Positions 1 to 11,017 of a DNA stretch of 63,519 nt are shown here, one piece after another (the first letter of the stretch is position 1; each line of letters starts with the position of its first letter). Where the stretch lies: positions 1 to 63,519 of the forward strand of contig JAZQAZ010000009.1 of NCBI GenBank assembly GCA_045545475.1. The letters are read 5' to 3'. Under the pieces are notes generated by a model that saw only the letters and a list, made by a program, of their open reading frames with translations, was not told where the DNA came from and searched no databases. Both the position numbers and the translations under genes were made by a program. Source of the DNA: Clostridia bacterium. GTDB lineage: Bacteria; Bacillota; Clostridia; CAKSNL01; HGM11501.

Positions 1-48
1 TTTGTAAAAGGGTTTCTTTACATTTGTGTTTTCGTTTGTGTTCTTCAT
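1..48 (-). CDS. 5' end of a gene running off the window (MKNTNENTNVKKPFYK...), possibly a membrane-anchored mobile-element protein
   Basis: ATG at 48-46 on the minus strand with a GGAGG RBS at 60-56; the frame is open to the edge. KKPFYK is often seen before an N-terminal TM helix. Confidence 0.55.
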   Translation of the reverse strand, partial: MKNTNENTNVKKPFYK

Positions 49-71
49 ATTGAAGCCTCCTTAATAAATAT

Positions 72-246
72 AAAAAAATGCGTTCCAATTAAGGAACGCA
101 CCAAAAAAGTGTAGTCCCCCAATTGTTGCTACACAATGCTCCACCTATTTTTCACAGGGATGAGTAAGAGAGAAAACACCTTTTTACAAAGGTTATTTTC
201 CCTATGAAAAAATAGTTATATGCATATGTGTAGCACATTCATTATA
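72..246 (-). ncRNA. Candidate structured leader/sRNA ending in an intrinsic terminator
   Basis: TATAAT at 246-241; nested stems 234-227/135-128 and 215-200/159-144; terminator TGCGTTCC/GGAACGCA (100-79) plus T7, upstream of the RBS of the edge gene. Confidence 0.55.
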
Positions 247-433
247 GCATAATACTCCCAAAACATCAATAGATTTTACAAAAATTGTATAGAACACTTA
301 AAAATTATAAACACATACTAAAAGAGCACACTCTATAAAAGGTTGAAACCTTTGAAACATTAGGTTAATAACCTAATGGCACTATCGCTAATGCGAACAA
401 TAAAAAATAAAAAGATACAGGAGGCTTACACAA

Positions 434-1531
434 ATGAAAAACAACCCCATATTAAAAAGAGTTAAAAACAACAATTACACATTAAAGCATATTTCACAAG
501 CAGAGATTGATAAAATAAGTCAAACAAACTTTGTTTTGTTTCTCTTTTGGCTTGATAATGATTATATCACTATCAAAAACAATTATTACAGGTTTTCAAA
601 TGATGAGAACATAACAATATATAAAGAGATGGGTTATGACCACTACACAGGCTTTAATTATCCACCTTTGTTTTTTCTTCAAGCATTTTTGAAATTAGAT
701 TTTAGGCAGTCGCTATATTTATTGAACTACTATTATTACAAGGTATATAAAAAAGATGTTGAAAAAGAGTTTAATACATATCTTTCAACCCATACAATAA
801 AAGAAACATCTTCCAATGTTGATTTACAATATATAATAAAAGAAAATCTTTTAACATCAGAAGACGAAGAAACAAGGTCAAAGGTTTTTAGTCGTGTTTA
901 TGCTTATCTAACATCAAGAGGTTTTGAAAGGTTTGTTATTGAAAATATGATAAAGCATAATTGGTTAATGGTTGATAAGAATTATAATCTATGCTTCATC
1001 ACATACGAGGACGAAACAAAAACAAGCATTATAGCAATAACTAAAAAAGGCACTTTAACCAACAATAATTATAAATGTAATTACACCAAAGAAAGATATA
1101 CAGGCTTTTTCTATAAACCCAAGAACACCAAAACACCAAAAGCATTATTTATATTTGAAAGTTGTTTAGACTTATTTTCATTCGTTCAACTTGTTTGGCA
1201 GAATAAAATTAAAATTGATGAAGAATATTGTTGTATATCATTAAATGGAGCAAACAACAGGAACTATATTTATAAAGTGCTAAATAACTATTCAAGTATA
1301 AACATTATTTATTGTTGTCTTGATAATGATTATAAAGGTAAGCAATCAACAGACCAAATTAAAAAGCAAATGATAAAAAACACTTATGATTTAAGGGGCA
1401 TAATTCAAGACCTAATAAAATATAACAATGGGCATTTAATAAAAGATTGGAATGAGTGCTTAAAGTTTTCAAATTACATTGATGTTGATATAAAGCAGTT
1501 TTTAGGAATACAGGAAAACAAGCAATTATAA
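434..1531 (+). CDS. DUF3991/TOPRIM-domain primase-like protein of a mobile element
   Basis: YLTSRG; FIFESCLDLFSF; SLNG; LDND (TOPRIM DxD); KDWNECL; GGAGG RBS. Confidence 0.75.
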   Translation: MKNNPILKRVKNNNYTLKHISQAEIDKISQTNFVLFLFWLDNDYITIKNNYYRFSNDENITIYKEMGYDHYTGFNYPPLFFLQAFLKLDFRQSLYLLNYYYYKVYKKDVEKEFNTYLSTHTIKETSSNVDLQYIIKENLLTSEDEETRSKVFSRVYAYLTSRGFERFVIENMIKHNWLMVDKNYNLCFITYEDETKTSIIAITKKGTLTNNNYKCNYTKERYTGFFYKPKNTKTPKALFIFESCLDLFSFVQLVWQNKIKIDEEYCCISLNGANNRNYIYKVLNNYSSINIIYCCLDNDYKGKQSTDQIKKQMIKNTYDLRGIIQDLIKYNNGHLIKDWNECLKFSNYIDVDIKQFLGIQENKQL

Positions 1532-1622
1532 AATATAATGTAGCAGAACGCTACACTCTCTGACCTAAATCAAAACAAATAACAGGGCAAGAAAAAGAGA
1601 GGCAAGAAACAAACAGGAACAT

Positions 1623-1660
1623 AAAAGGCTATCTGTAATTTAAACGCAGATAGCCTTTTT
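1623..1660 (+). terminator. Intrinsic terminator after the TOPRIM gene
   Basis: AAAAGGCTATCTG / CAGATAGCCTTTT inverted repeat. Confidence 0.65.
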
Positions 1661-1678
1661 GACAGTTGATTTGACAGT
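1658..1678. repeat. Tandem TTTGACAGT direct repeats, resembling tyrosine-integrase arm sites
   Basis: Copies at 1658-1666 and 1670-1678 (12-bp period) near the end of the AT-rich block. Confidence 0.45.
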
Positions 1679-1831
1679 AAATAGAAGAAAAAGCAAGGGA
1701 AAATAAGGGGAAATAAGAAGAAACGAACAAAAAAAGAAAACTGCTTAAATCCCTTGAAATAAGCAGTTTTCAGGTAGTTTTAAAATAAGTATTCAAAACA
1801 TAACAAATGGTTTAGATGCCAATATATTTTA

Positions 1832-1965
1832 GTGAAATATCTCGTTTTACTCGATGTGAAATAAAAAAATCCTTATATCACACGCTGAAGGCGTATTTCA
1901 CATTGCGAAGCAATATTTCACGCCTGAAGGGCATTTCACAAATCCAGAAAGGATTTATTTCGTTG
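1832..1965. repeat. Array of mini-hairpins separated by ATTTCAC (REP-like)
   Basis: ATATCAC-ACGC tgaag GCGT-ATTTCAC-ATTGC gaa GCAAT-ATTTCAC-GCCT gaa GGGC-ATTTCAC-AAATCC agaaa GGATTT-ATTTCG, preceded by two GTGAAAT. Confidence 0.7.
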
Positions 1966-2000
1966 AAAAAAGCGTACTGAATTTTCAGTACGCTTTTTTC
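1965..2000 (-). terminator. Terminator downstream of tRNA-Lys
   Basis: GAAAAAAGCGTACTGA attt TCAGTACGCTTTTTTC. Confidence 0.8.
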
Positions 2001-2076
2001 TGGTGCGCCATCAGGGACTCGAACCCGCGACACCCTGATTAAGAGTCAGGTGCTCTACCAACTGAGCTAATGGCGC
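2001..2076 (-). tRNA. tRNA-Lys (anticodon CTT), encoded CCA
   Basis: Cloverleaf GCGCCAT/ATGGCGC; D arm GCTC/GAGC; anticodon arm CCTGA-CTCTTAA-TCAGG; TTCGA loop; 76 nt. TTGACA at 2125-2120 upstream. Confidence 0.95.
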
Positions 2077-2232
2077 ATTTCCTTGCAACAAGGGATATAT
2101 TACCACAACCAAAGGTATTTGTCAAGAGTTTTTTTAATATTTTTTCAAAATTTTTGTTTTTTATTCTAAATATCAACATGAGTTTCAGAAACTTATAAAA
2201 ACTATATTGATTTCAAGGTATGAAAGTGATAT

Positions 2233-2670
2233 ATGAAATCACCACATACTATAATTTTAATACTTACTCACAAAGATATTTTTAAATATCTTTTATTTGC
2301 ATTGTTTGTAAGTCTTTGTGCCTGTGGCGGTCCTTCGGAAGAAGAAATGCTGGAACAGGCTACAGAGCTTGATCGTACAGAGCTGCTGGAAGCTATGCAT
2401 GCAAATTCTGAAAGAGCTAAAAAAGAATATAACGGTAAAGTTGTTGAACTAAAAGATGTTCCGGTCTACTTTACATCTAATGGAAGACTCAATACTCAAT
2501 ATGGGGGATCTCTTGGACAGGGAGGATTTGTAACTATTTCTTTCAGCTTTGAGTTACCTGAGGAGGAAATGCTTACAGTAAACGAAGGAGATCACATTTC
2601 TGTTATCGGTGTTCTTGAGATAGAGGATTCCTATGACGTAACTTTAAAGAACGCTTTTATGTCAGAATAA
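2233..2670 (+). CDS. Putative OB-fold lipoprotein (tRNA_anti-like family)
   Basis: Hydrophobic stretch with lipobox LCAC; N..A...Y.GK.V motif; start codon uncertain. Confidence 0.6.
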   Translation: MKSPHTIILILTHKDIFKYLLFALFVSLCACGGPSEEEMLEQATELDRTELLEAMHANSERAKKEYNGKVVELKDVPVYFTSNGRLNTQYGGSLGQGGFVTISFSFELPEEEMLTVNEGDHISVIGVLEIEDSYDVTLKNAFMSE

Positions 2671-2694
2671 ATTGCATAGTTAAAACCTTGATTG

Positions 2695-2731
2695 AAAAGA
2701 GTGCACCGCCAAAGGCGATGCACTCTTTTTT
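2695..2731 (+). terminator. Intrinsic terminator
   Basis: AAAAGAGTGCA..TGCACTCTTTT hairpin plus T tract. Confidence 0.75.
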
Positions 2732-2828
2732 GTAGTGTGCCGGAAGTGTGAAAATCAGAAAAATACATTTGTTTTATTGACAAAAAGGATATATGATAGT
2801 AAAATACTTATAGACTAATTAAGAAAGG

Positions 2829-3929
2829 ATGAAAAAAATGAAAAAAATTATAGGGTTATTATTGGCTTTTGCACTGCTTACCTCGTGTATTATAAGTGCC
2901 GGGGCAGCAAACATCGGTGATGTTATCAACAAAACAGTATACACCGATATTGTTGCAAAAATAAACGGTTACGACATTGCATCCTACAACATCGACGGTT
3001 ATACGGTTGTAGTTGCAGAGGATTTGCGTAATTACGGTTTTAACGTAGAGTGGAAGGGAGAAGAAAGAGCACTTTACATAACCGTAAATCCTTCTCAGTC
3101 AACAGTTACAAGCACTTATGTAGCACCTAAGGTTTCGGCAGATATGGTGGGTGTTAAAGCAAACGATGTTCTTTACACCGACATAAAAACATATATGGAT
3201 GGAAATCTTGTTACAAGCTATAATATTGGCGGCCTTACAGTTATATCCTTTAACGATTTACAGCGTTACGGAACAGTAAATTATGACAATGACGCCAGAG
3301 AGCTTTCCGTTGCATTACCTTGGGTAACAGGTGCTGACGGAACAGCCCCCCAGGCTCCCGACGGAACAAACGGCCCTCCTCCTCAGTCTTCTGATGGAAC
3401 AAGCGGTCCTCCCCCTCAGTCTTCTGACGGAACAAGCGGCCCTCCTCCTCAGTCTCCTGACGGAAGTGCTCCTCAGGCCCCTCAGACAACAACACCTTAT
3501 TCTACATTGGCAAATGAAATTAAAACAAACGGTGAGTTTGTAGAAGATTCCGATGGCAATTATTACTTTTTATACGGAGAATATACACTTGATGCAGGAG
3601 ATGTATCGTTATATGCTGTTTATACCGAGGGCAAGCACATAAGTTTTCTTTTCTCCGTTGAAAGCGATGTGACAATTGACATCATGATTATGATTAAAGA
3701 GGGTGGCGAGCTTAGCGGAGCTCTTTTTGAAGCTTCTCAGGGATCTTACGAGTTAGGCGTTGTATACACATACAATAATAACGGAGAATTGGTTCTTAAG
3801 CAATCAGACTATGCCGAGTTAAATGAAACGGCTGAAGAAATGATTACAGCGTCGTATGAAGTTTTTGATGAATTTTTAGCATCCATGGGTGCAAGCATCA
3901 AGCTTAAGAATTTTGGAATAAAGTATTGA
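2829..3929 (+). CDS. Secreted protein: duplicated N-terminal module, Pro/Ser-rich repeat linker, unknown C-terminal domain
   Basis: Signal peptide; two YTDI...NG..I.SYNI.G.TV-like repeats; DGTSGPPPQSS repeats. Confidence 0.75.
   Translation: MKKMKKIIGLLLAFALLTSCIISAGAANIGDVINKTVYTDIVAKINGYDIASYNIDGYTVVVAEDLRNYGFNVEWKGEERALYITVNPSQSTVTSTYVAPKVSADMVGVKANDVLYTDIKTYMDGNLVTSYNIGGLTVISFNDLQRYGTVNYDNDARELSVALPWVTGADGTAPQAPDGTNGPPPQSSDGTSGPPPQSSDGTSGPPPQSPDGSAPQAPQTTTPYSTLANEIKTNGEFVEDSDGNYYFLYGEYTLDAGDVSLYAVYTEGKHISFLFSVESDVTIDIMIMIKEGGELSGALFEASQGSYELGVVYTYNNNGELVLKQSDYAELNETAEEMITASYEVFDEFLASMGASIKLKNFGIKY
3360..3458 (+). repeat. Intragenic 33-bp tandem repeat x3
   Basis: GACGGAACAA(A/G)CGGCCCTCCTCCTCAGTCT(T/C)CT-like units at 3360, 3393 and 3426. 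Confidence 0.9.
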
Positions 3930-3930
3930 T

Positions 3931-3963
3931 AAAAAGCGTGTAGGTTTTGCCTACACGCTTTTT
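3931..3963. terminator. Bidirectional terminator
   Basis: AAAAAGCGTGTAGG/CCTACACGCTTTTT between convergent genes. Confidence 0.8.
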
Positions 3964-4837
3964 ATTGTATCTTATATTTTATCTTTTTGTACTCGTTAGG
4001 AGAGCAACCTTTGAAGCGTTTGAAAACCCTGTTGAAATAGGAAACGGAAGAAAATCCCACATCAAGAGAAATGTCGGAAACACTCATGGAGCTTGAGGTT
4101 AAAAGCTTTTCTGACTTACAAACCCTTACGAAATTGAGATACTCCGTAAAAGTGGAATTGGTTGCCTTTTTGAAAAGTCTGCAGAAATAATAGGTGTTTA
4201 AGTTAAGATGCTCACTTATCTGTTCTAAGGTTAACTGTTCAGCGTAGTTGGAGTCGATATAGGAAAGAGCAGGAAGCACCTTGTCCACATATTTGAAATT
4301 GAAATATGTGTCGGCATTAAGAAGAATGTTGTTTCTGTATAAAAAGCCCAAAATGCTGTGAATTCCGGATTTTATGAAGCTTTCGTATCCATTGTTCTTT
4401 TCGTAGCTTTCAATGAATATGAGGCGCATATAGTTGGAAAGAGCCTCGTTTTCCGGAGTATTTGCCTTGAACACCATAGAAGGAATTTCTCCCATATTTA
4501 TGAATCGGTACAAATACTTACTTATGTTTTCCTTTGTTTCAATAAAACTGATGGTGGAAAACTGAAGCATTGAGGAAAATGTGCCGTTTGCAAGAGTCCT
4601 GGTGGCGTGGGGAACACGACTGGCCAGGTAAATGATATCGCCCTTTTCTGCAATTAATTCTTCCGTACCTGCGAGGCAGTGAAACTTTCCCGATTCAATA
4701 TACAAAAGCTCAATTTCGTCATGGATGTGAAGCGAGCAGATGTGATGAGGCTCGAGTTTTTCGTTTTGCGGATGTGGAGAATATGAAATTTTAATAGGGA
4801 CGTTATCTATGCTTGAACGTATAAGCTCCTGATTCAT
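3962..4837 (-). CDS. AraC family transcriptional regulator
   Basis: Cupin H.H..IEL; C-terminal VGFSSVSYFNRVFKRFKGCSP; start placed after GAGGAGG. Confidence 0.92.
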   Translation of the reverse strand: MNQELIRSSIDNVPIKISYSPHPQNEKLEPHHICSLHIHDEIELLYIESGKFHCLAGTEELIAEKGDIIYLASRVPHATRTLANGTFSSMLQFSTISFIETKENISKYLYRFINMGEIPSMVFKANTPENEALSNYMRLIFIESYEKNNGYESFIKSGIHSILGFLYRNNILLNADTYFNFKYVDKVLPALSYIDSNYAEQLTLEQISEHLNLNTYYFCRLFKKATNSTFTEYLNFVRVCKSEKLLTSSSMSVSDISLDVGFSSVSYFNRVFKRFKGCSPNEYKKIKYKIQ

Positions 4838-4931
4838 AGAATTCCTCCTCATGTCAAAATTGTGCAATCAGTATATCATAGCTTTCACTAAAAAGCAAGA
4901 AAAAAGAGCAAGATTTTCTTGCTCTTTTTTC

Positions 4932-6104
4932 TTATTTAATGTGTTTGTCTGCAAAACGCTTCATTCGCTCAAGTGCCTTGTTTATGTTGCTGATGGAATA
5001 AGCATAGGAGCAACGGATAAAGCCTTCTCCCGAATCTCCGAAGGCGGAGCCTGATACAACTGCTACACGCTCTTCGTGAAGAAGTGCTTCGCAGAAATCA
5101 TCACTCTTAAATCCTGCCTTTGAAATGTTTGGGAATACATAGAAGGCACCTAAGGGTTCGAAACACTCAAAGCCCATTTCACGGAAGCCTGTAACCATAA
5201 GCCTGCGTCTCATGTTATATTCGTTTCTCATAGCTGCGACATCGCCGTCACAGTTGCGAAGTGCTTCGATTGCCGCATACTGGCTTGTGGTGGGGGATGA
5301 CATAATTGCATACTGATGTACCTTAAGCATCATTTTCATGATTTCCTTGGGAGCACATACATAACCAAGTCTCCAGCCTGTCATGGCAAAAGCCTTTGAA
5401 AAGCCGTTTATATAAATTGTACGTTCCCTCATACCGGGATATGCGGCAATGGATGTGTGCCCTTCGGGAGTATAGTTAAGTTCGGAATAAATTTCGTCGG
5501 TTAAAACAAGAATGTTTGTGTCACGGAGAAAAGCAGCAAGAGCTTCCAGATCCTCCTTTTCCAAAATGGCACCGGTGGGATTGTTGGGATAGGGGAGAAT
5601 TAGTGCCTTGGTTTTGTCAGTAACTGCAGCCTTTAAGTCCTCAACTGTCAAACGGAAGTTATTTTCTTCCTTTGTTACAATCGGAACTGGAGTTCCGCCT
5701 GCAAACATGGTTAAAGGCTTATAGCATACAAAGCTGGGCTCGGGAATTAATACCTCATCCCCGGGGGCGATGATGGTACGGAGAGCAACATCAATTGCTT
5801 CGCTTCCGCCAACGGTAACTAAAACCTCGTCCTCTGTATAGGAAAGCTCATACTTTCTGTCAAGATAACGGCAAATTTCCTTTCTGAGTTCAAGTAATCC
5901 TGCGTTTGCGGTGTAGTGGGTGTGTCCCACTTCAAGTGAACGTATACCCATATCTCGGATGGAACGGGGAGTGTTGAAGTCTGGCTCGCCAACACCGAGG
6001 GAAATTACATCCTTCATTTCGTTTACAACATTAAATAGCTTTCTTATGCCCGACGGCGGAATGGACATAACCGTAGGCGAAAGCAGTTTATCATAATCAA
6101 GCAT
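4932..6104 (-). CDS. PLP-dependent aminotransferase class I/II
   Basis: GEPDF, PNNPTG, DEIY, GFSKAFAMTGWRLG. Confidence 0.93.
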   Translation of the reverse strand: MLDYDKLLSPTVMSIPPSGIRKLFNVVNEMKDVISLGVGEPDFNTPRSIRDMGIRSLEVGHTHYTANAGLLELRKEICRYLDRKYELSYTEDEVLVTVGGSEAIDVALRTIIAPGDEVLIPEPSFVCYKPLTMFAGGTPVPIVTKEENNFRLTVEDLKAAVTDKTKALILPYPNNPTGAILEKEDLEALAAFLRDTNILVLTDEIYSELNYTPEGHTSIAAYPGMRERTIYINGFSKAFAMTGWRLGYVCAPKEIMKMMLKVHQYAIMSSPTTSQYAAIEALRNCDGDVAAMRNEYNMRRRLMVTGFREMGFECFEPLGAFYVFPNISKAGFKSDDFCEALLHEERVAVVSGSAFGDSGEGFIRCSYAYSISNINKALERMKRFADKHIK

Positions 6105-6114
6105 AGGGCACCTC

Positions 6115-6591
6115 TTATATCATCATTTCTCGGTCATCTGTCTTTACGTTTTCAAAGATGATGCCTTCGCGCTTATAGGTTTTAAGCATAAAGTGTGTGG
6201 ATGTGGAAATAACTGAATCCATCTGCGCAAGATGTTCGGAAACGAACATTGCAACGTCCTTTATGTTTTTGCCTTCAACAAAAACAGCAAGGTCGTATGC
6301 ACCGCTCATAAGATAGAGGTGGCGTACCTGCTCATAGCAATAAATGCGGGAAGCAATAGCGTCAAAGCCTTCGCCTGCGGAAGGAGTAACCTTAAGCTCA
6401 ATAAGAGCGGTTACGGTGTCTGCGGCAACCTTATCTTCGTTTACGATGGGCTTATATCCTAAAATGATTTTTTCTTCTTCCATTTTAGCAATGGCACTTT
6501 GAACCTCTGCTAAATCCATACCGGTCATTACGGCAATCTTTTCGGGAGTAATTCTGGCATCACTCTGAAGAATATCAAGAATTCTTTTCAT
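6115..6591 (-). CDS. Lrp/AsnC family regulator
   Basis: ILDILQSDAR HTH; SGAYD; directly upstream of the aminotransferase (alaR-alaT-like pair). Confidence 0.9.
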   Translation of the reverse strand: MKRILDILQSDARITPEKIAVMTGMDLAEVQSAIAKMEEEKIILGYKPIVNEDKVAADTVTALIELKVTPSAGEGFDAIASRIYCYEQVRHLYLMSGAYDLAVFVEGKNIKDVAMFVSEHLAQMDSVISTSTHFMLKTYKREGIIFENVKTDDREMMI

Positions 6592-6802
6592 ACTAATCTT
6601 CCTTTCGGTAAAAATAACTTACCATACATTATATACTATATATAAGAAAAAAACAAGGCTTTTTTAATAAATAGCAAAAAATATTTCGGAAAAAACAAGA
6701 AAACAGCATTTCTCCGAAAATATTTCTGCAAAAGGCGATAAAAAGCGAAAAAATTCTGAAATATAAAAGGAACACGGAATTTTTTCCGTGTTCCTGATTT
6801 TT

Positions 6803-7822
6803 TTATTCTAAGTCGCCGTAGCCTTCGGGGTTATTTGACTGCCAACGCCATGTGTCGCGGCACATATCTTCTAAAGTCTTTTCAGCTTTCCAACCCAAAA
6901 CTTCAAGAGCTTTCTTGGGATCTGCAAAGCATTCTGCAACGTCGCCGGGTCTTCTGTCTGTTATAACGTAGGGAACCTTTACGTTGTTAACTTTTTCGAA
7001 TGCATTTACGATATCAAGCACGCTGTAGCCTGTGCCTGTACCAAGGTTAACTGTTTCAACACCCTTGTGGTCCTTTGCGTAGGTGATTGCCGCAACGTGA
7101 CCCTTTGCAAGGTCAACCACGTGGATGTAATCACGAACACCGGTACCGTCGTGGGTGGGGTAGTCGTTTCCGAATACGCTTAAACGCTCTCTCTTACCAA
7201 CTGCGGTCTGTGAAATATAGGGCATTAAGTTGTTGGGGATGCCGGAAGGATCTTCGCCGATAGTTCCGCTTTCGTGGGCACCGATTGGGTTGAAATAACG
7301 AAGGAGAACAACTGATAAGTTTTTATCTGCAACAGAGGCATCGCGGAGTATCTGCTCGATGAAGAGCTTTGTCCATCCGTAGGGATTTGTGCAGCTTGTG
7401 GGCATATCCTCTGTCAGCGGAACAGTTTCCGGAATACCGTAAACTGTTGCAGAGGAAGAGAATGCAAGGTTGCATACACCAAATTCCTTCATTACATCAA
7501 GAAGTGTAAGTGTGGAATTTATGTTGTTTCTGTAATACATTATGGGCTTTTGTACGGATTCGCCGACTGCCTTGTAGCCTGCAAAGTGTATTACCGCATC
7601 AAGCTTGTTTTCCTGGAAAACTACCTTCAAAGCATCATAATCTGCCACGTCGCACTTGTAGAAGGGGATGCTCTGTCCTACGATTTTTTCAACCCTTCTT
7701 ACGCTTTCCATTTTACTGTTGGATAAATCGTCTGCAATAACAACTGTATGACCTTTTTTGATAAGTTCAACTGCGGTATGGCTTCCTATGTAGCCGGCAC
7801 CGCCGGTTAAAAGTATATTCAT
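6803..7822 (-). CDS. galE: UDP-glucose 4-epimerase
   Basis: GGAGYIGSH, KAVGES, SSSATVYG, YGWTK, LRYFNP, RDYIHV. Confidence 0.97.
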   Translation of the reverse strand: MNILLTGGAGYIGSHTAVELIKKGHTVVIADDLSNSKMESVRRVEKIVGQSIPFYKCDVADYDALKVVFQENKLDAVIHFAGYKAVGESVQKPIMYYRNNINSTLTLLDVMKEFGVCNLAFSSSATVYGIPETVPLTEDMPTSCTNPYGWTKLFIEQILRDASVADKNLSVVLLRYFNPIGAHESGTIGEDPSGIPNNLMPYISQTAVGKRERLSVFGNDYPTHDGTGVRDYIHVVDLAKGHVAAITYAKDHKGVETVNLGTGTGYSVLDIVNAFEKVNNVKVPYVITDRRPGDVAECFADPKKALEVLGWKAEKTLEDMCRDTWRWQSNNPEGYGDLE

Positions 7823-7836
7823 TTTTACGCCTCCAA

Positions 7837-9051
7837 TTATTTTACGATAAGCTTATAGAAGTTTTTCTTACCCTTTTTAACAATGATTTCACCGTCTGTA
7901 AAGTCGGCTTCTGTAAGTTCGGCAGCAATGTCTGTTACCTTAGCATCGCCGATTGTAAGACCGTTCTGCTGAATAAGACGACGGCATTCGCTCTTTGAAG
8001 GAGCGATACCTGCCTTAACCATTACGTCCATAACGTTTCCGAGGTCGCTCTTTTCAATTTCAACGGTGGGCATATTTCCTGATGCACCGCCTGAGAATAC
8101 CGCACGGGCTGCTTCCTGAACGTTCTTTGCGGTTTCTTCACCGTGAACAAGTGCTGTAACCTCGTATGCGAGACGCTCCTTAACGGGGTTAAGCTGACTT
8201 CCTTCAAGCTTTTCAAACTCTCTGATTTCGTCCATGGGAACGAAGGTAAGAAGCTTCATGCACTTGATAACATCGGCATCGTCAACATTTCTCCAGTACT
8301 GATAGAAATCGTAAGGAGTGGTTTTTTCAGCGGAAAGCCAAACTGCACCGGATGCGGTTTTACCCATTTTCTTACCTTCGGAGTTGGTAAGAAGAGTAAA
8401 GGTCATACCGTAAACCTGCTTCTGATCCTTCTTTCTGCAAAGGTCAAGACCGCCTAAGATGTTACTCCACTGATCGTCACCACCAAGCTCCAACTTACAG
8501 TCGTACTTACGGTTAAGCATCAAGAAGTCATAGCTCTGCATAAGCATATAGTTAAATTCGAGGAAGGATAAGCCTTTTTCGAGTCTCTGCTTGAAGCATT
8601 CTGCCTGAAGCATCTGATTAACGGAGAAGCAGGCACCGATGTCACGGATAAACTCAATATAGTTTAAGTCAAGTAACCAGTCGGCGTTATTTACCATTAA
8701 AGCCTTGCCGTCGGAAAAATCAATTATTCTTGAAAGCTGTTCTTTGAAGCATTCGCAGTTGTGGTCGATTACTTCCTTTGTCATCATCTGACGCATGTCG
8801 GTTCTTCCGGAAGGGTCACCGATGTGGCCTGTACCGCCACCAACAAGTGCGATGGGAGTGTGACCTGCATTCTGCATATGACGCATTACAACCATCTGAA
8901 GGAAGTGTCCTACGTGAAGGCTGTCAGCCGTGGGGTCAAAGCCGATGTAGAATTTTATCTTTTCCTTGCCCAGCATCTCACGGATTTCTGCCTCGTGAGT
9001 GGTCTGAGCAATAAGTCCTCTCTCTTTTAAAATATCAAAAACGTTTTCCAT
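7837..9051 (-). CDS. tyrS: Tyrosine--tRNA ligase
   Basis: [25 protein letters not shown]-terminal S4 domain. Confidence 0.97.
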
Positions 9052-10709: not shown

Positions 10710-10734
10710 GCCTGTAAGCATAAATGGGTATGCT

Positions 10735-11017
10735 AAAGGCTGTGAACGGAAGCAAGTAGGTTTTCCTTAGGAGTCAAGAGAAGCGGCGGTTGGTGCAAGC
10801 CGTAATCTGAAGGTTTACTGAATACGGTCCGGGAGCTTCGGGGAAGAAGTAAGTAAGCCCCGACGGGTTTCGCCCGTCAAAGCGAGTGAGTAGCACGGAA
10901 GTACGGTTTTTTTGTTTTACTCAATGAGGCAGGTTGCCGTGAGGTGCCTGTAAACTGAGGTGGTATCGCGGATTATTATGTCCGTCCTCTGGTTATTTTC
11001 CGGGGGACGGATTTTTT
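10735..11017 (+). promoter_or_regulatory. T-box riboswitch, probable Tyr specifier (UAC)
   Basis: Stem I with GA motif, AGTA/GAA S-turn, AGAGA box and GGTG distal loop; TAC at 10823-10825; T-box AACTGAGGTGGTATCGCG at 10953-10970; terminator at 10981-11017. Confidence 0.9.

Follow-up and report, generated by a model that had tools for sequence, protein, structure and literature searches.

What kind of element separates a promoter from a truncated gene at the very start of contig JAZQAZ010000009.1, part of the assembly GCA_045545475.1 of a Clostridia bacterium? The 63,519-nucleotide (nt) stretch analysed here, referred to throughout as the window, carries on its minus strand a compact structured region at 246-72, which a sequence-only reading had described as a candidate switchable leader RNA belonging to a mobile element. 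The analysis presented here supports the view that window 269-46 (minus strand) is probably a complete gene-control cassette, namely a transcription-attenuation leader that belongs to a new family. This family of leader RNAs is absent from Rfam 15 and apparently undescribed; the kind of device that it represents, a multi-helix transcription attenuator, is already known. All leader coordinates are window positions on the minus strand, and the RNA index i equals 241 minus the coordinate.

The layout of the locus gives the first part of the answer. A leader RNA of about 165 nt, from about 235 to 71, lies between a strong promoter of constitutive appearance and a ribosome binding site (RBS), and the TATAAT at 246-241 is present exactly where the sequence-only reading had placed it. 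Judging from the promoter, transcription would start at about 235-233. The edge gene behind the leader runs for 16 codons from its ATG before the frame leaves the contig; as the window begins at base 1 of the contig (C9), this gene has been cut by the assembly. The distance from the terminator U-run to the ATG is 22 nt, which leaves no space for another promoter in the window copy, and the edge gene, part of a low-GC segment beside a tRNA-Lys gene, is probably expressed only via read-through of the leader.

The region is also far more stable than its composition predicts. The 207-nt stretch folds at -67.1 kcal/mol compared with a mean of -39.3 (standard deviation 4.2) for 200 dinucleotide shuffles (z = -6.6), none of which reaches the observed value. 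All of the nested stems that had been read from the sequence were recovered. Pairing of GCTACACA (234-227) with TGTGTAGC (135-128) corresponds to the basal stem P1, in which 235-227 pairs with 135-127 and four further pairs lie beyond a bulge; the pairing of 215-200 with 159-144 resolves into a 3-base-pair (bp) extension plus a second stem, P2; and the inner hairpin is found at about 199-172 as P3, whose two strands are termed X and Y. A CU-rich single-stranded tail lies on the 3' side of P3, and P2 is predicted at the same place among the per-sequence folds listed. P1 is followed by a linker and then by the strong terminator that had been noted before the edge-gene RBS, the stem of which spans 102-77 with 10 pairs (5 G-C) ahead of a T-run. 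Across the family the constant features are the A-run, the U-runs, the P3 loop G, the CUCU and GGAG motifs, an ACAAU after P1, the AUA of the loop between P1 and P2 (its A at 219 is kept in 93% of 107 rows) and the base of P1. The sequence at the base of the terminator stem (101-97 and 82-78) is likewise unusually conserved family-wide, as GUGCG...CGCAC/U, which may reflect added pairing with the linker core.

Homologues with compensatory changes, on which the sequence-only reading had made its proposal depend, were found in a 62-sequence MAFFT alignment. The structure scored comprised P1, the terminator and a long-range helix between Y and the linker segment Y', and was compared with 500 shuffles. 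In total 93.1% of cells are paired, compared with 79.5% (standard deviation 0.5) in the shuffles, 0/500 of which reach the observed value, and the covariation score is 0.500 compared with 0.234 for shuffles and 0.078-0.147 when the partners are slid by 1-3 columns. In P1 all 13 of 13 pairs have changed on both sides, with 92.8% of cells paired, and its cognate duplexes average -16.8 kcal/mol versus -7.1 for non-cognate ones. The terminator behaves in the same way (9/9 pairs changed on both sides, 98.9% paired). The long-range Y:Y' helix is 89.6% paired with 6/10 pairs changed on both sides, one column pair being populated by CG 39, UA 17, UG 5 and AU 1, and its CUCU:GGAG extension is 90.2% paired with 4/4 pairs changed on both sides. 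Imperfect pairs are G-U far more often than A-C (P1 49:12, terminator 72:4, long-range helix 108:24), which indicates that the selected object is an RNA read in the predicted direction and not a DNA inverted repeat. Because stem lengths vary, P2 and P3 give poor column counts on MAFFT alignments (64.7% paired for P2, a weak value that reflects misalignment), and these stems were judged instead from folds of individual sequences and from duplex energies of cognate and non-cognate strands. A covarying structured domain thus lies upstream of an expression platform, as it does in riboswitches, and its conserved unpaired positions are the AUA of the P1-P2 loop and the P3 loop G.

The central claim of the sequence-only reading was that a GUGUAG could pair either with a 5' GCUACAC or with a second ACUACAC adjacent to the terminator, giving two mutually exclusive folds. 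Two exclusive folds of attenuator type are borne out, through other helices than those proposed. The ACTACAC at 115-109 can pair with GTGTAG in the window copy, but this pairing is not conserved family-wide, and the proposed switch shows no covariation: in 107 members the 3' strand of P1 against the linker gives -5.43 kcal/mol for cognate and -5.34 for non-cognate combinations. The conserved alternative joins ACACUUUUUU to AAAAAGGUGU of the apical hairpin; the ACUACAC segment belongs to this Y:Y' pairing, in which Y (185-170) meets Y' (GGGGGA-CU-ACACUUUUUU, 120-103) in a duplex of -12.5 kcal/mol in the window. Other subfamilies use different sequences for the same helix, pairing AAAAAUGCAU-GCUCU with GGAGC-U-AUGCAUUUUU, AAAAAGUAU with AUACUUUUU, or AAAAACGA with UCGUUUUU.

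Duplex tests on the 62 sequences indicate that Y has two partners. X:Y duplexes average -10.6 kcal/mol when cognate and -6.1 when non-cognate, and Y:Y' duplexes -14.0 and -8.5, respectively, whilst the X:Y' control gives no signal (-4.7 cognate versus -5.1 non-cognate). Cognate X:Y pairs fall in the top decile in 29/62 rows, compared with 4/62 for the X:Y' control, and Y' is the stronger partner of Y in 49 of the 62 sequences. Y can thus pair with either X or the linker, so that X and the linker compete for it. An anchor-based comparison of a 6-nt Y core with Y', in which 59/180 were fully complementary against 9.6% of shuffles, sometimes anchored on an incorrect A-run, and the alignment replaced it.

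The linker has a second potential partner downstream, the terminator itself. In the window an antiterminator forms between 125-114 and 97-86 (11-12 bp), with an additional inner ACAC-U:GGUG helix of four pairs. In nested folds of a transcript from 235, the antiterminator hairpin (125-108 with 102-86) has an energy of -17.8 kcal/mol versus -15.0 for the terminator, and it is the minimum-energy fold at every tested length of at least 156 nt. Within the window subfamily the antiterminator partners change together, CAAUUAAGGA with UCCUUAAUUG, AUGAGAGA with UCUCUCAU, CAAUGAGG with CCUCAUUG and AAUCGGAGA with UCUCCGGUU. Over 183 copies, the 5' part of the linker against the top of the terminator 5' arm plus loop gives -6.64 kcal/mol for cognate combinations versus -4.89, with 63/183 in the top decile compared with 20/183 and 9/183 for two control segments; the whole-linker hairpin averages -12.15 kcal/mol versus -9.01 with non-cognate linkers, and the terminator -14.9. 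No cognate signal was detected between the last 12 nt of the linker and either terminator arm (-4.09 versus -3.73 kcal/mol for the 5' arm, -4.18 versus -3.81 for the 3' arm), and the complementarity of the linker end to the 5' arm in the window fold is consequently conserved and not covarying. The antiterminator signal is real but moderate and is not universal, and the two folds lie near one another in energy, as is the case for riboswitch expression platforms.

The position of the leaders relative to genes gives independent information on their role. In the window the leader is promoter-proximal and structured, with the terminator directly before an RBS, as had been proposed. A search for same-strand, RBS-preceded open reading frames (ORFs) of at least 30 amino acids (aa), with 600 random starts as control, found an ORF start 10-30 nt past the U-run in 91/183 copies (49.7%, control 6.2%) and an ORF within 60 nt in 117/183 (control 19.3%). 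In the other 66 copies, another unit comes next in 15, the locus ends in 6, an ORF starts at 61-200 nt in 26 and the first ORF lies at 201-700 nt in 16, leaving 3 with none. A -10-like hexamer is found in 158/182 copies, with the upstream TG in 139 and a -35-like hexamer in 135. In 123 copies the -10 element stands exactly 5 nt from the first base of P1, and this fixed spacing implies that the 5' end of the transcript is buried in P1. With no space for a second promoter before the ORF, terminator read-through is the only evident route to expression. The family therefore has the order promoter, leader, terminator and RBS that is expected of an attenuator, together with an alternative helix of moderate strength that is exclusive with the terminator.

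The controlled genes are rich in surface or secreted proteins and in small proteins without a family, and they are not metabolically coherent. Pfam assignments for the 117 close downstream proteins include the leucine-rich repeat (LRR) families LRR_5 (BspA type, 22) and LRR_8 (20), MazE/AbrB (5) and zinc ribbons (4), as well as Cu_amine_oxidN1, dockerin, Glug, Flg_new, SLH and lectin domains. By a crude rule 60/117 have an N-terminal hydrophobic signal, and many are small acidic or cysteine-rich proteins to which no family is assigned. When 1028 ORFs from 75 species-level loci were clustered all against all, an LRR surface protein was found in 20 loci, directly downstream of the leader in 14; no neighbouring regulator and nothing else recurs in these loci. 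The suggestion that the leader gates mobile-element genes therefore stands in part: the leader does precede a gene, but its use is not element-specific, with diverse downstream genes and with the Toprim-like neighbour of the window copy absent beside the other copies fetched.

Several groups of small proteins were observed directly behind leaders. Acidic proteins of 36-70 aa that begin with the pattern M-x-DYKKLY...LF..ITD.IEEL occur in at least 7 loci (L004:1660-1818, L017:1285-1479, L036:1698-1832, L044:998-1177, L103:5987-6127, L161:3414-3623 and L178:5705-5812), with no family assigned, the Pfam tally not being kept per member. Cysteine-rich small proteins with the motif GNGEQGFECCCDECDYYLLCFPE or similar (L108:1643-1822, L130:2723-2878 and L079:939-1187) might be peptide precursors. 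Small proteins of AbrB/MazE type (SpoVT-AbrB fold), some with a C-terminal cysteine-rich tail, also recur as the controlled gene (L028:1245-1484, L069:945-1184, L051:958-1188, L088:1014-1175 and L094:961-1161).

Is the family new, and how far does it extend? Consistent with the sequence-only reading, which had recognised no riboswitch consensus, Rfam 15 at gathering thresholds matched a T-box, a Gut-1 RNA and tRNA in the whole window and none at 72-246. At E <= 10, window 1-450 gave six chance-level matches, the best scoring 17.3 bits where the gathering score is 105; 20 loci with family members gave tRNAs only at gathering thresholds, and in 14 further loci at E <= 1 there were scattered sub-threshold matches to leader-peptide and small RNA models with no family recurring across loci. 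When 60 related genomes were searched by BLAST with the intergenic region, 7/60, from several families, matched window 208-73 at 70-78% identity, and every homologue carries a TTGACA-like -35, a TGnTATAAT and the terminator. A covariance model (R1) built from eight sequences matched 36/151 evenly drawn genomes of the same class at E <= 1e-3, always at full length, with up to 12 copies per genome, several of them head to tail; the genome of the window itself has one. At E <= 1e-5 there were 107 matches in 93 sources. When 151 genomes drawn across the phylum were searched at this threshold, only G000 and one other matched, both of the same class, and no match from another class was among those listed.

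A degenerate pattern applied to one genome per species matched at least 120 stretches, and R1 gave 76 matches in the 78 pattern loci searched. The 80 record titles among the pattern matches listed are all metagenome-assembled genomes or uncultured Clostridia from gut, rumen or faeces, and include Oscillospiraceae, Acutalibacteraceae, Ruminococcaceae, Christensenellaceae, Lachnospiraceae, Monoglobus, Ruminiclostridium, Dysosmobacter, Faecalibacterium and Eubacterium. Plasmid and phage sequences gave no BLAST match to window 60-250. No description of the leader family was found in full-text literature searches, nor in the parts of Fremin and Bhatt 2021 (PMC8040213) consulted, the 3161 supplementary candidates of which could include the family unnamed. 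Tandem arrays were also observed: four head-to-tail units at L039:1262-2156 (+) and three at L082:301-976 (+), each unit with its own promoter and terminator. Stem sequences differ between the units of these arrays, and the final unit adjoins a small ORF. Arrays of two units also occur.

These data allow the construction of a model of how the leader could work, in which the transcript ends, the folding order and the identity of the ON state are predictions. The RNA would form a stack of P1, the AUA internal loop and P2, capped by P3, with the linker and terminator following. Within it a chain of mutually exclusive helices between five segments can be drawn, from X:Y (P3) to Y:linker, then linker with the terminator 5' arm and loop, and finally terminator 5' arm with 3' arm. 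As long as P3 holds Y, the linker would be free to pair with the emerging terminator 5' arm, and RNA polymerase would read into the gene. If Y instead captured the linker and displaced X, no antiterminator could form, the terminator would fold and an RNA of about 165 nt would be released. The Y:linker helix would be long-range and formally pseudoknotted, and could nucleate on the single-stranded CU-rich tail by P3. The U-run at the end of the linker might act as a pause, exposing GGAG to the CUCU toehold before the terminator 5' arm emerges. Under this model the balance between X:Y and Y:linker would set gene expression, and the terminated product could also act in trans.

What would tip the balance is a matter for conjecture. 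A trans-acting protein or other macromolecule encoded elsewhere is a credible trigger, if short of an even chance. A single trans-acting RNA that reads Y is unlikely, as Y sequences differ between copies in one genome (G039, for example, has several types). That the trigger is a small molecule or ion, which would make the leader a true riboswitch, is possible but rather doubtful. There is also a fair minority chance that no dedicated effector exists; attenuation would then depend on kinetics, pausing or the global state of transcription, and the leader would in addition protect the mRNA with a stem at its 5' end. A bolder proposal, offered tentatively and on balance unlikely, is that the family constitutes a riboswitch-like class, confined to one Bacillota class as sampled, in which toehold strand exchange (CUCU takes GGAG and displaces X) reads a global signal such as a small molecule, ion or alarmone, and gates dozens of accessory and surface genes in each genome of these uncultured Clostridia of gut and rumen, while the 165-nt products might act in trans.

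Several observations weigh against an attenuation leader. The antiterminator signal is of moderate size, and in 98/183 copies the 3' domain still has the terminator as its minimum-energy fold. The long-range helix crosses P1 and P2 as a pseudoknot and needs a sharp bend at the P1-P2 loop or partial opening, which is outside the energy models used; in the window subfamily (19 sequences) this helix is conserved and not covarying, with a clear double change in 1/10 core pairs. The P3 column count is 68.5% paired compared with 65.6% in shuffles, and a +2 slide scores equally. Shared ancestry among the sequences means that the shuffle and cognate tests exaggerate independence. Six sequencing runs were found, one recorded as RNA and two guessed to be RNA, these three holding shares of 0.05-0.07; contigs from RNA libraries (4 runs compared) map to parts of 325-1600, outside 1-270, and both transcript ends and read-through are as yet predicted. 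Run X4, which is DNA or of undeclared type, gave short pieces on 104-235 that come from related copies.

The tandem autonomous units and the terminated product itself would also fit a different role, that of a multicopy gene for a trans-acting small RNA (sRNA), in which the promoter-terminator unit would itself be the product, with alternative helices that serve its structure and incidental genes downstream. Every unit has its own promoter and strong terminator, as such autonomy demands, a genome can carry up to 12 copies, tandem arrays hold four (L039), three (L082) or two units, and 19/183 copies have no ORF within 200 nt while being neither tandem nor at the end of a locus. A conserved CU-rich single-stranded tail also recalls the seed regions of Gram-positive sRNAs. 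An sRNA gene should, however, be independent of the ORF downstream, and the 49.7% of copies with an ORF start 10-30 nt past the U-run, where a promoter has no space, together with the 117 same-strand ORFs within 60 nt, argue otherwise. The cognate-specific complementarity of the linker to the terminator 5' arm and loop would be needless for a pure sRNA, and the last tandem unit at L039 adjoins an ORF; both roles could coexist, but an sRNA gene as the sole explanation is improbable. Even less can be said for inverted repeats of a miniature mobile element or for an invertible promoter or terminator switch acting at the DNA level, despite a P1 that forms a 13-bp inverted repeat of partly conserved sequence and multicopy units that lie near variable accessory and surface-protein genes. 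The mismatches are strand-specific, with the excess of G-U over A-C given above, the stems diverge with compensation and are not near-identical copies, and neither the order nor the orientation of promoter, terminator and RBS varies, all of which makes such an element very improbable.

The nature of the downstream genes invites comparison with riboswitches for nucleotide second messengers such as cyclic di-GMP (c-di-GMP), which in Clostridioides difficile are multicopy and lie before surface and adhesin-like genes. The BspA-type LRR_5 proteins (22/117), the SLH, dockerin, lectin, Flg_new and Cu_amine_oxidN1 domains, the N-terminal signals in 60/117, the LRR cluster as sole recurrent neighbour in 75 loci and the multicopy, tandem nature of the RNA would all suit such a ligand. 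Nevertheless, the Rfam models of the c-di-GMP classes gave no match in the window at E <= 10, nor in 14 further loci at E <= 1. GGDEF domains, searched for at E <= 1e-10, are missing from 8/36 genomes that carry the RNA, and three of these genomes (G095, G108 and G113) are at least 96% complete yet have 8, 5 and 3 copies, respectively. Genomes with GGDEF are as frequent among carriers (28/36) as overall (119/150). A second-messenger riboswitch of this kind is accordingly highly unlikely and c-di-GMP as ligand can be excluded rather firmly; other ligands remain within the attenuation reading. A leader-peptide attenuator, in which translation of a mini-ORF starting in Y would select the helix, is suggested by an AUG inside the conserved AAAAAUGCAU of many copies. 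The AUG is present in only 83/183 copies and not in that of the window, ORF length varies from 1 codon to more than 35, the frames are spread 33/26/24 and no Shine-Dalgarno-like motif precedes the AUG in the copies inspected by eye, so that this explanation is scarcely tenable. A transcription-attenuation leader thus remains the preferred account of the locus, and the coordinates of its parts are collected in Table 1.

Table 1. Parts of the leader cassette at the start of the contig, in the order of transcription.
Feature	Position	Strand	Details
Promoter	269..241	-	-35 TTGATG 269-264, 17-nt spacer, extended -10 TGcTATAAT 249-241; 10/12 matches, TG upstream
Sigma-70-type promoter, 5 bases, then leader RNA of nested stems	first P1 base 235	-	
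P1, 5' strand	235..222	-	235-227, then 225-222 past a 1-nt bulge; fold and covariation
AUA, conserved and unpaired, 5' side of P1-P2 internal loop	221..219	-	columns A20, T21 and A22 (near-)invariant in alignment A6
P2, 5' strand, UUUUCAUAGGG	210..200	-	fold; pairs with 159-149
P3, apical hairpin	199..172	-	X strand about 199-188, loop, Y strand about 185-172; -6.7 kcal/mol
Y strand, AAAAAGGUGUUUUCUC	185..170	-	shared; partner of X (P3) or of linker Y'
P2, 3' strand, CCCUGUGAAAA	159..149	-	fold; pairs with 210-200
P1, 3' strand	139..127	-	139-136 and 135-127; fold and covariation
Linker, CAAUUGGGGGA-CU-ACACUUUUUU	126..103	-	3' two-thirds (120-103) is Y'; whole linker is antiterminator 5' arm
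Intrinsic terminator hairpin	102..78	-	stem 101-93 with 86-78, loop 92-87; -15.0 kcal/mol; 102-86 doubles as antiterminator 3' arm
Terminator U-run	77..71	-	seven T; columns invariant T family-wide
RBS, AAGGAGG	62-56	-	ATG of controlled gene at 48-46

The surroundings of the cassette bear on the idea that it belongs to a mobile element. The GC content is 26-32% in window 1-2000 and 35-48% in 2001-9000, with the boundary at the tRNA-Lys gene and the other end beyond the contig, and low GC up to a tRNA gene fits a foreign segment inserted beside it. That 1-2000 is a mobile element is plausible but unproven, as it rests on the GC contrast and the adjacent tRNA-Lys. The Toprim-like gene at 434-1531 matches Pfam Toprim_2 and no NCBIfam or PHROG family, and has matches of 23-26% identity in two gut phage records. 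Further features were noted in the window. A Gut-1 RNA (RF01706, 71.3 bits) at 1890-1965 (-) lies 35 nt downstream of tRNA-Lys(CTT) at 2001-2076 (-), which has a promoter-like site upstream at 2125-2097, and the two RNAs may be co-transcribed. A canonical T-box leader (RF00230, 103.8 bits) is located at 10733-10992 (+), and 2829-3929 (+) encodes a protein of 366 aa that has a signal peptide, contains the proline-rich unit PPPQSSDGTSG three times in tandem and has no Pfam match at E <= 0.01.

If the attenuation model is correct, many gut and rumen Clostridia use one portable control cassette in common, and it gates BspA-type LRR surface proteins, lipoproteins, small AbrB/MazE-like proteins and many proteins without a family. 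The surface proteins of these mostly uncultured bacteria shape encounters with the host, with phages and with each other, and a shared switch that occurs up to 12 times in a genome would point to an unrecognised regulon. A compact RNA with clearly defined, covariation-backed competing helices would also be a candidate part for synthetic control in Clostridia.

Among known systems, the closest parallel in logic is offered by the PyrR-dependent pyr attenuators of B. subtilis, in which a terminator, an antiterminator and an upstream anti-antiterminator compete and a stabiliser of the upstream helix decides the outcome. The leader family has the same promoter-proximal position and three-layer helix competition, but it has no match to a PyrR-site model, no known or nearby-encoded binding protein and no pyrimidine genes downstream, and its anti-antiterminator is a long-range helix across two stems rather than a local hairpin. 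T-box leaders are also multicopy Firmicutes leaders of similar size, sometimes in tandem, with a terminator/antiterminator platform; the scan that found the true T-box of the window detected nothing at 72-246, the family has no match to specifier-loop or T-box sequences, and the genes downstream are not aminoacyl-tRNA synthetase or amino-acid genes. In the ZTP/pfl, preQ1-II or -III and fluoride riboswitches a 3' segment pairs back into an upstream loop or bulge to form a pseudoknot that controls a terminator, and in the leader family too a 3' segment beside the expression platform pairs upstream. The family differs from these riboswitches in having no sequence or model similarity to them, no known ligand and a gene set that is not metabolically coherent, and its helix is long (10 plus 4-6 bp) and engages in strand exchange with a local hairpin. 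Finally, the Listeria LhrC1-5 RNAs are encoded as head-to-tail units of promoter, RNA and terminator with CU-rich single-stranded motifs. Tandem units and a CU-rich motif are found in the leader family as well, but most of its copies are single, adjoin an RBS and ORF, and carry an antiterminator complementary to their own terminator.

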